Source: a virus (taxonomy: Duplodnaviria; Caudoviricetes). From it: DNA of 59,526 bases. The notes below the pieces were generated by a model. It had not been told where the DNA came from and did not search any database. It saw only the letters and a list, made by a program, of their open reading frames with translations. Below are positions 4,885-8,844 of the stretch, one piece after another (within the stretch, counting starts at the first letter, position 1; each line of letters opens with the position of its first letter). A program made the position numbers and the translations under genes. Location: positions 1 through 59,526 of the IMG/VR virus record IMGVR_UViG_3300032330_001422; one strand, 5' to 3'.

Positions 4885-4961
4885 TGGTGGATCAAACCGG
4901 ACTTGAACCGATAACCGAAAAATTATGAGTTTTTTGCTCTAACCAATTGAGCTATTGATCC
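4885..4961 (-). tRNA. tRNA with CAU anticodon (Ile2 or elongator Met)
   Basis: GGATCAA/TTGATCC acceptor, AAAAA-CTCATAA-TTTTT anticodon arm, GTTCAAGTC T-loop, encoded CCA. Confidence 0.9.
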
Positions 4962-4968
4962 ATTAAAA

Positions 4969-5061
4969 TGGTGGCTCCGTAGGGAATTGAACCCTATCAG
5001 TACCCAAATCTAGGGATTATACAGATTATAAGTCTGCCCATGCACCATACATCACAGAGCC
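4969..5061 (-). tRNA. tRNA-Ile(UAU) with long variable arm
   Basis: GGCTCTG/CGGAGCC acceptor, GCAGA-CTTATAA-TCTGT arm, extra arm CCC-TAGATTT-GGG, GTTCAATTC, CCA. Confidence 0.85.
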
Positions 5062-5072
5062 ATTACTAAAAC

Positions 5073-5148
5073 TGGAGCGATATCTCGGACTTGCACCGGC
5101 CTTGTGGACTGGAAGGCCCACCGTGCTCCTCATAGACACTAATATCGC
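5073..5148 (-). tRNA. non-canonical tRNA-Gly(UCC)-like
   Basis: GCGATAT/ATATCGC acceptor with U73 and CCA; anticodon arm GTGGGCCTTCCAGTCCAC gives a 6- or 8-nt loop; T-loop TGCAAGT; two T-stem mismatches. Confidence 0.7.
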
Positions 5149-5156
5149 ATTAAAAC

Positions 5157-5229
5157 TGGAGCGGGTCCGAACTTTGCATTTCGCCTTTTGATCTGGTAGA
5201 CCAACGTGCTCTCTTTACACTTGACCCGC
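5157..5229 (-). tRNA. non-canonical tRNA-Gly(ACC)
   Basis: GCGGGTC/GACCCGC acceptor with U73 and CCA; TTGGT-CTACCAG-ATCAA arm; degenerate T-arm CGAAA-TGCAAA-GTTCG. Confidence 0.72.
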
Positions 5230-5241
5230 ATTTAAATTCAA

Positions 5242-5537
5242 ATAGGAAGGACTAATGATTACCTCCAAGTTTCAGAATCACGACTGGTTATTCATCCACA
5301 GTCCACACGGTTAATTACTCCTTGTGTTAATGACTGATGGGATTTTGTTTTCCCCACAACGGGCTACGATTTATCATATATTTTAGCTACGGTCCCGTTA
5401 CGCTCAAATTTGGGGTTGAACGACCTCAAATTCTCCATAGACTTACCCTCCATGATTCTTACTCCAACCAATATACAACGTTTTTCAACACCATATATTG
5501 TGCGTTACAACTAAACTAATCGTTGTTCCGCCACTAT
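5242..5537 (-). ncRNA. candidate ~300-nt structured RNA of unknown class
   Basis: No credible ORF; complementary ends and nested helices (5274-5282 with 5451-5459; hairpins 5407-5432 and 5469-5500); sits between tRNAs directly after a boxA-like element. Confidence 0.65.
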
Positions 5538-5543
5538 CTTAAA

Positions 5544-5555
5544 TTGTTAAAGAAC
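5544..5555 (-). promoter_or_regulatory. boxA-like antitermination element
   Basis: GTTCTTTAACAA(TTT), close to the rrn boxA TGCTCTTTAACA; same 12-mer at 8476-8487. Confidence 0.65.
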
Positions 5556-5565
5556 TATCAAAAAA

Positions 5566-5641
5566 TGGTAGGCGTGAGTGGATTCGAACCACCGCTTTAC
5601 AGATTTTAAGTCTGTTGACTCTTCCGCTGGTCTACACGCCC
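5566..5641 (-). tRNA. tRNA-Leu(UAA) with short variable loop
   Basis: GGGCGTG/CACGCCT acceptor, ACAGA-CTTAAAA-TCTGT arm, 5-nt variable loop, GTTCGAATC, CCA. Confidence 0.9.
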
Positions 5642-5650
5642 ATTTAAAAC

Positions 5651-5709
5651 TTTTTAAAGAACCGTCACTTACTACTCTTTCATCTTATCACATCTTTGTT
5701 TGTTGTCAA
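5651..5709 (-). promoter_or_regulatory. sigma70-type promoter, AGTAGTAAGT leader and boxA-like element
   Basis: TTGACA-16-TAAGAT (TGn extended), then AGTAGTAAGTGACGGTTCTTTAAAAA. Confidence 0.75.
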
Positions 5710-5727
5710 GCATCTACTTTATAAATA

Positions 5728-6684
5728 TCAATTACTATGCTGAATCCAATTATTTGGCGTTGTACATTTTGTTGAATCTGTAAACACTTTTGTTACTTTG
5801 CTCAGTGTATCAGACGAAATATGTGCATCATAATACTTAATTGTATAATTAGTATTGTGTCTTAAAGTTTGTACATGACACGTACAATATTGAGAAAATA
5901 CATTTGAAAATACTAAAGAATCTTCTTCATATAGCTCTACCCCAAACACATTTTTGCAATAATCGCCTTTTGCTGCTAAAAAGATGTATTCATTTTTTGA
6001 AGAATCATAATACACTTCAGCTTGATTGTTTACCGAAAACAAATTTCTGCTTTCAAAGACGGAATCTTCTTCGTTTTTTAATTCAATAACATCTTTATGT
6101 TTGTGTGACAATAGGTACACCAATGTTTCATTGGACTCTAATCTTTCTTTTTTAGCGTAGAACTCAATAAAATTTAATTTATCCGTTGTAAAGAACGATG
6201 TCAACACATCAAGATTGCCATAAAAAAATGTTACTTGATAAGACTTTTCTATTCCCAATGTATAAAAATAAACTTTTGTGTAATCTAATTCATTGAAAAT
6301 AAAATTATAGTGATTTTTGTTAATCAATACATCTAAATCAATAAAGTAATAAAAATCATAACCAATATTTTTACAATAGTTTAATGTACTTTGATATAAT
6401 TTAACAAAATAATTTGAATACAATACTTTTCTATTATTTATATTTCTAAAATAAATTTTGTTGCCAATCGCAAAATAAGGATATAAACCATCGGTTAAAT
6501 AATGTGAATCACATACATGATTTACTGTAATATAATTTTTTACGCCGTCAAAACTTTCCATATAATCAGACGATGCTAATATCACATCAATATTCTGATT
6601 ATTGAATAATTCAATTTTCTCTTTTAATAGAGATTTTCTATATGCATTATTTGCAAAATTAGAAATTATAACACATCGTTTCAT
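5728..6684 (-). CDS. hypothetical protein, glycosyltransferase-like, inserted in the tRNA array
   Basis: Start moved to ATG at 6684 (the longer ORF reads through a tRNA fragment); YFIDLDV DxD-like motif. Confidence 0.6.
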   Translation of the reverse strand: MKRCVIISNFANNAYRKSLLKEKIELFNNQNIDVILASSDYMESFDGVKNYITVNHVCDSHYLTDGLYPYFAIGNKIYFRNINNRKVLYSNYFVKLYQSTLNYCKNIGYDFYYFIDLDVLINKNHYNFIFNELDYTKVYFYTLGIEKSYQVTFFYGNLDVLTSFFTTDKLNFIEFYAKKERLESNETLVYLLSHKHKDVIELKNEEDSVFESRNLFSVNNQAEVYYDSSKNEYIFLAAKGDYCKNVFGVELYEEDSLVFSNVFSQYCTCHVQTLRHNTNYTIKYYDAHISSDTLSKVTKVFTDSTKCTTPNNWIQHSN

Positions 6685-6690
6685 AAAAAT

Positions 6691-6740
6691 TGGTAGGGAT
6701 GGAGGGACTTGCACCCCCACGGTTTTACCCACGGCTTTTT
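6691..6740 (-). pseudogene. 3'-half fragment of a long-arm (Leu-like) tRNA
   Basis: Variable arm, GGGGG-TGCAAGT-CCCTC T-arm and CATCCCT-ACCA end; no matching 5' half seen nearby. Confidence 0.7.
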
Positions 6741-6747
6741 CAAAAAA

Positions 6748-6824
6748 TGGTAGCTAGGGTCAGATTCGAACTGACACTGTTTCGTTTTTGAAACGAATGC
6801 CTCCTGCCTTTGGGCTACCTAGCC
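6748..6824 (-). tRNA. tRNA-Leu(CAA) with short variable loop
   Basis: GGCTAGG/CCTAGCT acceptor, TTCGT-TTCAAAA-ACGAA arm, 5-nt variable loop, GTTCGAATC, CCA. Confidence 0.9.
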
Positions 6825-7454
6825 ATTTAAAATTTTAGATTCAATCAACTTATAAACTCTACTATAGTTTCTTCCGTTTTCAATTCCTAAATTTTTTAGA
6901 GTTTGATTAATATTTCCCTTACATTTATGATACATATCAATCAATTCATTGTCATCTATTTTTTTAATAGAAGTAGATTTTATATTTTTTGCACAAAAAG
7001 TATCTGTTTGACTATGACAATTTGGACATAAAAATCTTAAGTTTTCTAATCTTTGGTCAGTTGGTATACCATTTATATGGTCTAATTGTAAATTTAATTT
7101 TTTATTATTCCAAAATCCCAAATTAGAACATAATGTACATTTATACTCAATTAAATTTTTTTTCTTTATTAGATTTCTAATGTATGATTTTGAAAATTTA
7201 CTATTCTCTATAAAGATTTCATTTTTATTTCTTTCAGATAATCTATCATCATCCAATAAAGTTTTACCTTTGCTCCATAACATGCCTGTAAAATGTGAAA
7301 TATCAATATTAAGATTTGATATTTCTTTTTTTATTCTAGAGTGGGTTGAACCACTATATGGTATACCAAGTCTTTTAATTACTTGGGTATAAGATAAAGA
7401 TTTTTTTGTAGCATCTATCAAATCAGACTCAGTATAAATTTGTTTTTTCCTCAT
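6819..7454 (-). CDS. free-standing HNH homing endonuclease
   Basis: CTLC...LQLDHING...NLRFLCPNCHSQT; start taken at MRKKQ; stop codon lies in the first nucleotides of tRNA-Leu(CAA). Confidence 0.92.
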   Translation of the reverse strand: MRKKQIYTESDLIDATKKSLSYTQVIKRLGIPYSGSTHSRIKKEISNLNIDISHFTGMLWSKGKTLLDDDRLSERNKNEIFIENSKFSKSYIRNLIKKKNLIEYKCTLCSNLGFWNNKKLNLQLDHINGIPTDQRLENLRFLCPNCHSQTDTFCAKNIKSTSIKKIDDNELIDMYHKCKGNINQTLKNLGIENGRNYSRVYKLIESKILNG

Positions 7455-7530
7455 ACTAATAAATAGTATATTGGAAGACATAAATACAAATTATTTTGTG
7501 TCTGCTAAAATTTCAATGAACTATTAAAAA

Positions 7531-7624
7531 TGGTGGTTCCGCCCGGATTCGAACCGAGACCGTGCTCAAATCTAGAGCTTATCAACGTTATAAGCGTTGC
7601 GTTCTACCGTTAAACTACGGAACC
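7531..7624 (-). tRNA. tRNA-Ile(UAU) with long variable arm (second copy)
   Basis: GGTTCCG/CGGAACC acceptor, CAACG-CTTATAA-CGTTG arm, extra arm GCTC-TAGATTT-GAGC, GTTCGAATC, CCA. Confidence 0.88.
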
Positions 7625-7630
7625 ACTAAA

Positions 7631-7704
7631 TGGTAGCGGGTAGCCGAATTACACGACTTCCTTCTCGTTATGAGCGAGATATGCTATTTTTACAATCACC
7701 CGCA
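7631..7704 (-). tRNA. divergent tRNA-Met(CAU), initiator-like
   Basis: TGCGGGT/ACCCGCT with 1:72 mismatch, TCTCG-CTCATAA-CGAGA arm, atypical T-loop TGTAATT, CCA. Confidence 0.72.
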
Positions 7705-7815
7705 AATTGTTTTGTCAACATCTAAAATTGTCGCCGGTCTTTTAATTGGCGCTTTAATCCTCTGGTGGGGAACCAACTCAAGTGTCCTATTAATCGGATA
7801 TTCTCCGGGCGTAAA

Positions 7816-7891
7816 TGGTAGCTATGACAGGAATCAAACCTGTATATTCCATCTTATGAGGATGGCGCATCAATCATTCTGCCACATAGCC
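7816..7891 (-). tRNA. tRNA-Met(CAU), elongator-like
   Basis: GGCTATG/CATAGCT acceptor, CCATC-CTCATAA-GATGG arm, T-loop TTTGATT, CCA. Confidence 0.82.
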
Positions 7892-7898
7892 ACTGAAA

Positions 7899-7974
7899 TG
7901 GTCGCTCGTCTAAGAATCTCACTTAGTTTCCAATGGTTATGAGCCATCGTCAGATAAATAACCTGCCACCAGCT
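7899..7974 (-). tRNA. degenerate tRNA(CAU), initiator-like or pseudo-tRNA
   Basis: AGCTGGT/ACGAGCG acceptor with two mismatches, GATGG-CTCATAA-CCATT arm, CTAAG-TGAGATT-CTTAG T-arm, CCA. Confidence 0.62.
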
Positions 7975-7980
7975 ATTAAA

Positions 7981-8305
7981 TTGTGTTGGTTTCGATAATA
8001 CACAGAGGTTTATTTCAACGAAATAGCGTTTTTTATTGACTCACAATTATCATTTTTTTCTCAGGTTTGTACGCTTTTCAACGTTCCATCAATCTGATAC
8101 TCTATTTTCCACCAACTAAAATTATCAAAAGAACTATTAAAAATTGTGTTGGGTGTAATTATTGAATACTTTGTCCACCCAACAAACAGAGTATACCATA
8201 TGCTAACCCCGCAACCAAGAAGTTTTTTAAGAGACTTCCAACTCTAGGGGCATTTTGGTTATTTGCCCTCCACCAGAGTGTTTTTCTTGCTGATACACTC
8301 AAACA
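7981..8305 (-). ncRNA. candidate structured RNAs (about 7981-8117 and 8144-8305)
   Basis: ORF-free; closing stem GTTGGT/ACCAAC; hairpins GAGTGT/ACACTC, GGGCA/TGCCC, GAAGT/ACTTC, TGTTGGGTG/CACCCAACA; boxA-like element between them. Confidence 0.45.
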
Positions 8306-8307
8306 AT

Positions 8308-8382
8308 TGGTAGTCTGTAGGGGAATCGAACCCCTCTTACCGGAGTGAAAGTCCAGTGTCCTAGCCGATAGACGAACAGACC
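8308..8382 (-). tRNA. tRNA-Glu(UUC)
   Basis: Canonical cloverleaf, CTGGA-CTTTCAC-TCCGG arm, GTTCGATTC, CCA. Confidence 0.95.
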
Positions 8383-8389
8383 GTTAAAA

Positions 8390-8466
8390 TGGTGGCCCCG
8401 GTGGGACTCGAACCCACGACCAAAAGCTTAAAAGGCTTCTGCTACTACCAACTGAGCTACAAGGCC
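8390..8466 (-). tRNA. tRNA-Lys(UUU)
   Basis: Canonical cloverleaf, GAAGC-CTTTTAA-GCTTT arm, GTTCGAGTC, CCA. Confidence 0.95.
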
Positions 8467-8475
8467 ATTAAAAAT

Positions 8476-8534
8476 TTGTTAAAGAACTATTACTTACTAC
8501 TTATTCATCTTACCACGATTTCTTTTGTTGTCAA
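8476..8534 (-). promoter_or_regulatory. sigma70-type promoter, AGTAGTAAGT leader and boxA-like element
   Basis: TTGACA-16-TAAGAT (TGG extended), then AGTAGTAAGTAATAGTTCTTTAACAA. Confidence 0.78.
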
Positions 8535-8538
8535 CTAT

Positions 8539-8646
8539 TTCTTTGTTCTTTGTTGGTGACCCCCTTCGGTTAAAGGCCGAGGCGGTTCCGCCATACGTAG
8601 ATGTTCTAGAGGAGTGCTTCTCCCACCGTGCTTAAAGAACAAAGAA
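8539..8646 (-). ncRNA. candidate small structured RNA enclosed by a perfect 13-bp inverted repeat
   Basis: TTCTTTGTTCTTT...AAAGAACAAAGAA flanks GC-rich hairpins (GGAG/CTCC, GGCG/CGCC, TCGG/CCGA); has its own promoter. Confidence 0.55.
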
Positions 8647-8651
8647 TCGTT

Positions 8652-8695
8652 TACTTACTACTTCTTTATCTTACCACTAAGATTTCAAAGATCAA
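8652..8695 (-). promoter_or_regulatory. sigma70-type promoter with AGTAGTAAGT leader
   Basis: TTGATC-16-TAAGAT (TGG extended) followed by AGTAGTAAGTAAA. Confidence 0.7.
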
Positions 8696-8763
8696 CTTCT
8701 TTTTTAGAGAAGTTTTGAGGTAACTTATACATATAATGAAATATACTTAAAATTACTTAAAAA

Positions 8764-8844
8764 TGGCGCTCCGGGAGGGAGTTGAACCCCCATTTTCATC
8801 CAATTATGCACTTAGGGCTTAGAAGTCCCCGCCATTACCGGAGC
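8764..8844 (-). tRNA. D-armless tRNA-Arg(UCU)-like RNA with long variable region
   Basis: Perfect GCTCCGG/CCGGAGC acceptor plus GCCA, GGGGG-TTCAACT-CCCTC T-arm, GGGGA-CTTCTAA-GCCCT arm, only 7 nt (TAATGGC) in place of the D-arm. Confidence 0.7.

Follow-up and report, generated by a model that had tools for sequence, protein, structure and literature searches.

Why should a phage tRNA-Ile with the anticodon UAU carry a second hairpin whose loop centres on GAU, the ordinary isoleucine anticodon? Two such genes lie in the window, the 59,526-nucleotide (nt) stretch analysed here (positions 1 to 59,526 of the IMG/VR virus record IMGVR_UViG_3300032330_001422; Duplodnaviria, Caudoviricetes). For the isoleucyl-, tryptophanyl- and glutaminyl-tRNA synthetases (IleRS, TrpRS and GlnRS), the anticodon serves in decoding and is at the same time the chief identity element, a double role that restricts codon reassignment. 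We have found that the second hairpin is real, conserved and widespread in phages and in bacterial tRNA clusters. The comparative evidence suggests that the GAU arm probably serves the host IleRS and the UAU arm the ribosome, by which AUA would be read without lysidine. The two genes and their arms are as follows.

4969-5061, minus strand: tRNA-Ile(UAU) copy 1, 93 nt, 7/5 acceptor/T branch, A73, encoded CCA.
5021-5037, minus strand: arm 1 of copy 1, the putative decoding arm; canonical anticodon arm, loop CUUAUAA, UAU at 5030-5028.
5003-5015, minus strand: arm 2 of copy 1, the putative IleRS arm; CCC/GGG stem, loop UAGAUUU, GAU at 5010-5008.
7531-7624, minus strand: tRNA-Ile(UAU) copy 2, 94 nt, 7/5 branch, class I type D-arm, A73, encoded CCA.
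7583-7599, minus strand: arm 1 of copy 2; anticodon arm, UAU at 7592-7590.
7564-7578, minus strand: arm 2 of copy 2; GCUC/GAGC stem, loop UAGAUUU, GAU at 7572-7570.

ARAGORN called two intron-free tRNA-Ile(tat) genes on the minus strand, one at 4969-5061 and the other at 7531-7624, and the Rfam tRNA family RF00005 matched the same intervals with 39.3 and 62.5 bits, respectively. Each copy has a 7-base-pair (bp) acceptor stem, a D-arm, a 5-bp anticodon stem with a 7-nt U33 loop, a T-arm and CCA. The copies are identical at 60 of 94 aligned positions (64%) and share a 5-bp T-stem, the anticodon loop CUUAUAA and a 24-nt extra region containing the hairpin with the UAGAUUU loop. The earlier note on this DNA had described two tRNA-Ile(UAU) genes with a second GAU-centred hairpin, closed by CCC/GGG in one and by GCUC/GAGC in the other, and this was confirmed by both programs and by reading the two loops at 5003-5015 and 7564-7578. 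In each second arm, an equivalent of the C29-G41 pair is present and the loop ends 9 nt before the T-stem. The 9-mer CUAGAUUUG occurs twice in the window, which is weak when taken alone, as 11 of 100 shuffles reach two occurrences. The note had also placed AUAA after the UAU anticodon; AUAA is indeed present in both copies, but directly after the anticodon stem, and none of 67 relatives starts its extra region with it, so this element is not conserved.

Copy 1 has a 99% identical counterpart in a close relative, a phage contig of 295,831 bp with a completeness rating of 100%, and the stretch of copy 2 from the anticodon loop to the T-arm is matched exactly in a related contig. Three other views of the structure were rejected. 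An amber (CUA) reading of arm 2 failed because CUA is not conserved, the consensus loop being CAGAUUA; loop-loop pairing between the arms failed because kissing loops would need longer linkers; and a 37/38 intron failed because the copies share no alternative anticodon stem.

The conservation of the arm was assessed in IMG/VR with a pattern that asked for the UAU anticodon loop and a long extra region of unspecified sequence (119 loci of ~1500). The 111 unique matches were reduced to 97 that passed tRNA pairing, 91 with the CUUAUAA loop and 72 with a normal D-region; as for all family counts given below, kinship was not corrected for beyond clustering at 80% identity. GAU stood at the centre of a 7-nt second loop in 67 of these 72 long-arm tRNAs, and together with a stem of at least 3 bp in 66, against a mean of 0.8 and a maximum of 6 in 1000 shuffles. 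The remaining 19 of the 91 UAU genes have a short D-region, and the GAU arm was found in none of them. A reciprocal scan with the second loop fixed and the anticodon left open (~1400 stretches, 110 unique matches, 94 past the filter) returned a UAU anticodon in all 86 GAU-arm tRNAs with a stem of at least 3 bp; the eight set aside were two UAU genes with weak stems, one misparsed UAU gene and five armless matches.

Clustering of the 117 viral genes gave 61 groups at 80% identity and 33 at 70%. The second stem was aligned for 61 sequences, namely the two window genes and 59 of the 61 cluster representatives (two with very long linkers were omitted); it was 95.1% paired, with two-sided changes in all four pairs. 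The loop varied more than expected from the earlier note, which had taken the whole 7-nt loop as conserved: CAGAUUA was found in 34 of 67 relatives and UAGAUUU in two, and only GAU was invariant. Position 32 of this loop was a pyrimidine in 67/67, position 33 was A in 60/67, and position 37 was U in 47, G in 8, A in 8 and C in 4. With a covarying stem and an invariant triplet, the proposal that the arm is under selection held.

The family is not confined to viruses. A pattern requiring GAU matched 120 loci in GTDB genomes, and 77 of these passed a strict filter; many lie within tRNA arrays of Blastocatellia and some are solitary in Proteobacteria. A normal tRNA-Ile(GAU) adjoins in many of the bacterial arrays. 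An armed copy, missed by ARAGORN, is carried by plasmid pC of Cereibacter (Rhodobacter) sphaeroides 2.4.1. Another GAU-arm UAU tRNA, with the loop CUGAUAU, was seen in a Euryarchaeota bin (L262:3001-3055), which could be a viral contig within the bin. Two short queries against the cultured phages of INPHARED gave no match at E 1e-3, a weak test.

Scans of the same open form as that for UAU were made for UCA, CUA and CAU, with the second triplet scored at anticodon spacing from the T-stem. Among the 91 UAU genes, the triplet was GAU in 67, CCA in none and CUG or UUG in three. The UCA genes (21 of 115 unique matches past the filter) had CCA in 15 of 21, GAU in none and CUG/UUG in one, the shuffles giving a mean of 1.3 and a maximum of 6; G73 was present in 13 of these 15, two look like chance matches, and most of the UCA genes that missed CCA resemble tRNA-Sec by eye. 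The CUA genes (41 of 110 past the filter) had CUG/UUG in 30 of 41 (shuffle mean 4.7, maximum 12), with no GAU and no CCA; the amber-Trp form was thus represented by 0 of 41. In the CAU control (59 of 107 past the filter), GAU, CCA and CUG/UUG were found in 3, 4 and 4 of 59, all within the shuffle range. Recoded phages read UAG as Gln and UGA as Trp (PMC12386605, PMC10607447, PMC9523058; here and below, papers are cited for the passages concerned). Therefore, the second loop corresponds to the ordinary anticodon of the amino acid expected from the first anticodon, that is, Ile for AUA, Trp for UGA and Gln for UAG. The Trp and Gln second arms mostly keep U33 and A37.

The position of the second loop is likewise that of an anticodon. 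From a normal anticodon loop to the T-stem, the spacing is a 5-bp stem plus 4-5 nt. In 66 of 67 genes, 9 or 10 nt separate the end of the GAU loop from the T-stem, and hence the loop sits at anticodon distance; the stretch from the first-arm stem to the GAU loop was variable (4-16 nt in 67 genes). In class II tRNAs, the variable stem joins the T-stem through a short linker, without the class I 44-48 strand. Here, the linker 3' of arm 2 was 5-6 nt in 65 of 67, which indicates an arm inserted upstream of a complete class I variable strand, and not the usual class II variable arm; the UAU anticodon of all 86 genes is also not one of the class II set (Leu, Ser, Tyr, Sec). The third base before the T-stem weakly tracked position 13, as base 46 does (C13 with G in 11 and A in 2; U13 with G in 11 and A in 14), with an uncorrected p of 0.036 for one of ten positions tested, and a p of 6e-7 in the armless control. 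Positions 13 and 22 could pair in 36 of 45.

With regard to identity elements, A73, the Ile discriminator base, was found in both window copies and in 67/67 relatives, and the G34/L34-A35-U36 set is absent from arm 1 (UAU) and present in arm 2. The C29-G41 pair, listed as a determinant of E. coli tRNA-Ile (PMC9976931), was carried by the GAU arm of 49 and by the UAU arm of 15 of the 61 representatives (discordant 37 vs. 3, p 2e-8, uncorrected for kinship).

We have also considered which synthetase the carriers could offer. E. coli IleRS prefers LAU to UAU 360-fold; the W905R change narrows this to 18-fold, making Trp905 partly responsible (PMC3575796), and B. subtilis IleRS, with Arg at this position, charges a U34 tRNA well (PMC3919564). 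The IleRS zinc domains recovered from 9 of 10 hand-picked bacterial carrier genomes all read CxRCW, with Trp at the W905 position. Trp thus occupied the position in 9/9 hosts and in one phage-encoded IleRS, and the Arg or Lys of the M. mobile type was found in none of them. That phage enzyme (L875:1420-4206, from the record of L041, a 435,946-bp jumbo phage) is a 928-aa type 1 IleRS that keeps CPRCW and lies ~4.5 kb from a GAU-arm tRNA. In a survey of 49 virus records (45 carriers and 4 non-carriers), a TilS-family protein was found in none and a class Ia synthetase in one; charging would therefore fall to the host. Neither TilS nor a synthetase was present among the 64 window open reading frames (ORFs) scanned, and three related phage records had neither a TilS-family protein nor a class Ia synthetase. 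AUA accounts for 378 of 1153 Ile codons (33%) in 49 window ORFs. Loss of tilS as the driver was rejected, as tilS scored over the cut-off in 9 of 10 bacterial carriers tested.

Based on the anticodon-like spacing, the C29-G41 pair on the GAU arm, the Trp and Gln analogues and the Trp at W905 in 9/9 host IleRS, the suggestion of the earlier note that the arm supplies an IleRS identity signal is, by inference, the reading that we favour. During charging, the UAU arm would be looped out and its place beneath the D-stem, the anticodon position, would be taken by the GAU arm. On the ribosome, that place would go to the UAU arm, which would decode AUA, and the GAU arm would behave like a variable arm; its A33 and U37 would keep it from decoding. 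The host IleRS would in this way probably accept a tRNA that it would otherwise charge poorly, and AUA would be translated as Ile with neither TilS nor a special synthetase, and the likely benefit to the phage would be a supply of AUA-reading tRNA independent of host TilS or tRNA-Ile2. TilS-independent decoding, which had been proposed as a separate alternative, would then follow as a consequence of IleRS reading the GAU arm, and not as a replacement for a lost tilS. On balance, we lean towards the view that tRNAs with two anticodons form a natural class, widespread among phages and mobile tRNA arrays, in which identity is split from decoding by a conformational swap. With a similar slight preference, we would place Ile(UAU/GAU) in that class as the sense-codon member beside UCA/CCA (Trp) and CUA/CUG (Gln).

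Several observations weigh against this split of identity and decoding. Some concern the RNA itself. In unconstrained folding of the whole molecule, the closing-pair probability was 0.33 and 0.03 for arm 2 and 0.32 and 0.28 for arm 1, which is low for arm 2. For bacterial-type IleRS, t6A37 has been described as a strong determinant (PMC9976931), and A37 stands beside GAU in 8 of 67, with U in both window copies. In S. aureus IleRS1, tRNA U36 contacts U33 (PMC13752280, PMC11685878), whereas arm 2 has A33 in 60 of 67. If IleRS ignored the UAU arm, its loop should be freed from A37-A38, and this was not seen (44/86 armed vs. 39/97 armless, p 0.18); a relaxed A37-A38 was thus rejected as a sign of such neglect. 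Furthermore, on E. coli ribosomes, AUG can be misread by a UAU tRNA that lacks modification (PMC3575796), a cost that the split leaves unexplained.

Other adverse points concern the setting. The IleRS2 marker was present in 8 of 48 hand-picked genomes (42 strict carriers and 6 near misses) and under the cut-off in 40, many of the genomes being incomplete bins. A host search with the clamp-loader gave only matches of at most 41% identity. By rough estimates from patterns that differ, armless UAU tRNAs are commoner in viruses than armed ones (~4900 stretches vs. ~1500 and ~1400); in the armless set, 97 of 108 unique matches passed the filter, some of them from giant-virus records. A close relative of the window phage has an armless UAU tRNA ~1 kb from its armed copy. 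The armless pattern was, however, found in 0 of 45 other carrier records. The host-type control, by which armless UAU tRNAs would occur only where IleRS tolerates U34, was underpowered, with matches in 2/401 and 7/401 genomes that by eye were mostly non-tRNA. As an observation apart, the armless viral UAU tRNAs (L364-L482) often lack A38 (A37-A38 in 39/97), which would likely prevent t6A37 and may relate to AUA/AUG discrimination.

Among the alternatives, the one that survives best, still an unlikely one, is an auxiliary contact with no switch, in which IleRS would read UAU in the usual place and arm 2, kept where a variable arm lies, would add affinity, recruit a modifying enzyme or limit AUG misreading. 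Both hairpins can form together, some IleRS (B. subtilis, M. mobile) can use a UAU tRNA without the arm, and an engineered pseudo-anticodon in a variable arm did act as an auxiliary tether, although this tether needed an extra fused domain (PMC7590224). The Ile, Trp and Gln triplets, however, all stand at normal anticodon spacing, and one static side position would be unlikely to suit three synthetases.

Quite unlikely, in our judgement, is a decoy, in which the GAU loop would soak up or misdirect a host factor aimed at tRNA-Ile(GAU), the RNA being charged via UAU or unused in translation. In a reporter assay, no activity was seen for allo-tRNAs with UAU, and a link to toxin-antitoxin systems or mobile elements was suggested for them (PMC5389517); the window holds other odd tRNA-like genes, and A33 and U37 make arm 2 unlike a working anticodon loop. 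A decoy, however, has no need of a UAU tRNA (86/86), of the T-stem spacing, of C29-G41 or of the change to CCA and CUG in UCA and CUA tRNAs. The anticodon-nuclease version put forward in the earlier note would be expected to mimic the genuine loop, CUGAUAA in 6 of 9 canonical clusters, and this loop was found in 0 of 67 arms; the idea gained no positive support and leaves the match between loop and amino acid in three families unexplained.

It is very improbable that LeuRS or SerRS charges these RNAs, with Leu or Ser inserted at AUA. The nematode nev-tRNA-Ile(UAU), with its variable arm, accepts only Leu in vitro (PMC3333845), a precedent for such charging. A73 would suit Leu too. Against this, the invariant Ile triplet would have no explanation, the 5-6-nt 3' linker (65/67) is unlike that of a class II variable arm, positions 13 and 22 pair in 36 of 45, and allo-tRNAs that are read as serine acceptors have G73 or U73 (PMC5389517), vs. 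A73 in 67/67 here.

We give hardly any credence to the removal of one arm in processing, as a short intron-like insert that would leave an ordinary tRNA. On paper, deletion of arm 2 does give a normal-length UAU tRNA. Yet ARAGORN called both copies without an intron, and the 5' junction has no conserved sequence or length. RNA contigs came, at low depth, from 4 of 24 listed runs, every run holding less than 0.2 of the words. Such contigs span copy 1 and the 7531-7624 region, and no arm-removing joint was among those shown for the four RNA contig sets, which is weak evidence, as the RNA may be precursor or DNA. Equally slim is the prospect that both arms decode in turn (AUA by UAU, AUU/AUC by GAU), which the anticodon spacing of arm 2 from the T-stem and the U33 and A37 mostly kept by the Trp and Gln arms would allow, but which is opposed by an Ile arm 2 without U33 in 64/67, without a purine at 37 in 51/67 and with a stem of mostly 4 bp, and by the normal tRNA-Ile(GAU) beside the armed gene in many bacterial arrays.

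A tRNA with a separate identity loop breaks the link between decoding and identity. If identity and decoding are indeed split between the two arms, this would account for the lysidine-free reading of AUA by mobile elements, and for the charging of the suppressor tRNAs of recoded phages (UCA/CCA, CUA/CUG) by unmodified host enzymes. It would also offer a general way to give any codon to an anticodon-dependent synthetase, and a simple design for genetic-code engineering. The RNAs would form a new tRNA class, were the division of labour confirmed.

The window appears to come from a large phage, with a family B DNA polymerase, a clamp-loader ATPase, a phage lysozyme and an intein-bearing helicase. 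Both tRNA-Ile(UAU) copies belong to the following array.

4885-8844, minus strand: phage tRNA array with 8 ARAGORN genes, several uncalled tRNA-like genes, an HNH gene and abundant non-coding RNA.

Within the array, a non-coding stretch of ~305 nt (5240-5545, minus strand by context) reached a contig depth in the thousands in 3 of 4 RNA runs, vs. less than 60 in most flanking bins. One contig joins 5543 back to 5240, which may reflect a circular RNA or an assembly cycle. The stretch has a weak Rfam match to manA RNA (15 bits, E 0.18, gathering 55.2) and a fold z-score of only -1.56; it is nearly identical in four related phage contigs, the flanks of which vary.

Other genes of the array are also unusual. 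The uncalled tRNA-like genes (5073-5148, 5158-5230, 7630-7703 and 7899-7974, minus strand) are four: one resembles Gly(UCC) but has an irregular anticodon loop, another bears the rare anticodon ACC, and two are additional CAU genes in which the T-loop is altered; there are four CAU genes in all. The tRNA-Leu genes UAA (5566-5641) and CAA (6748-6824), both on the minus strand, are 76-77 nt long with a short variable loop, unlike class II tRNA-Leu. The HNH gene and a 334-aa ORF lie inside the array (6690-6760, 6819-7481), beside a broken tRNA remnant, and RNA-run contigs of relatives join across these inserts. A UCU tRNA (8764-8844, minus strand) lacks the D-hairpin and has a D-loop-like GG segment after the anticodon arm. 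A matching family (L019, L029, L031, L035, L057, L060 and others) made up 19 of the 91 UAU and 8 of the 59 CAU genes. In this family, the acceptor stem is followed by 7 nt that pair with the extra region (a 3-bp helix in 17/17, in four covarying versions), as in a D-arm with rewired strand order, and the ARAGORN default score misses it. Finally, many initiator-like phage CAU tRNAs (L486-L596) have extra arms of 16-22 nt with varied loop sequence.

Full-text literature searches returned no natural tRNA with a second anticodon arm, which is not proof, as most subscription journals were outside their coverage and supplements could list such genes as tRNA-Ile(TAT); the passages of the tRNA review PMC7954030 mention none. 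We have thus found no earlier description of the two-arm architecture, and from the comparative evidence we infer its function.

Several known systems share part of it. The Mycoplasma mobile tRNA-Ile(UAU) (PMC3575796) and the B. subtilis G34U suppressor (PMC3919564) likewise use UAU for AUA without lysidine, but depend on an IleRS whose W905 position is Arg, whereas the carriers here have a Trp IleRS (9/9), keep tilS (9/10) and add a GAU arm to the tRNA. The recoded-phage suppressor tRNAs (PMC10607447, PMC12386605) are alike in that many carry a second CUG/UUG or CCA arm in the present scans; they differ in reading stop codons, and the cited passages of these papers do not mention a second arm. 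The allo-tRNAs (Mukai et al. 2017, PMC5389517) share the long extra arm, UAU as a predominant anticodon and an occurrence in Acidobacteria and phage arrays. They have, however, an 8/4 or 9/3 branch and G73 or U73 and are read as serine acceptors, whereas the present genes are 7/5 with A73 (67/67), and four GAU-loop motifs had no match in the supplementary sequence table of that paper. The nematode nev-tRNA-Ile(UAU) (PMC3333845, PMC4300185) also combines UAU with a long extra arm, but is eukaryotic, derived from tRNA-Leu and charged with Leu, and the abstracts describe no Ile triplet in the arm. In the E. coli thrS operator (PMC9976931), also a natural RNA, a synthetase recognises two anticodon-like stem-loops; the operator is an mRNA leader without an acceptor arm, which regulates translation and is not charged. 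In the engineered tRNAs with a pseudo-anticodon in the variable arm (Mukai 2020, PMC7590224), a second anticodon-like loop in the extra arm helps recognition by the synthetase. Those tRNAs are synthetic 9/3 allo-tRNAs that require HisRS fused to an extra anticodon-binding domain and show a modest gain in charging, whereas the RNAs described here are natural, have a 7/5 branch and mostly come without an encoded partner enzyme.

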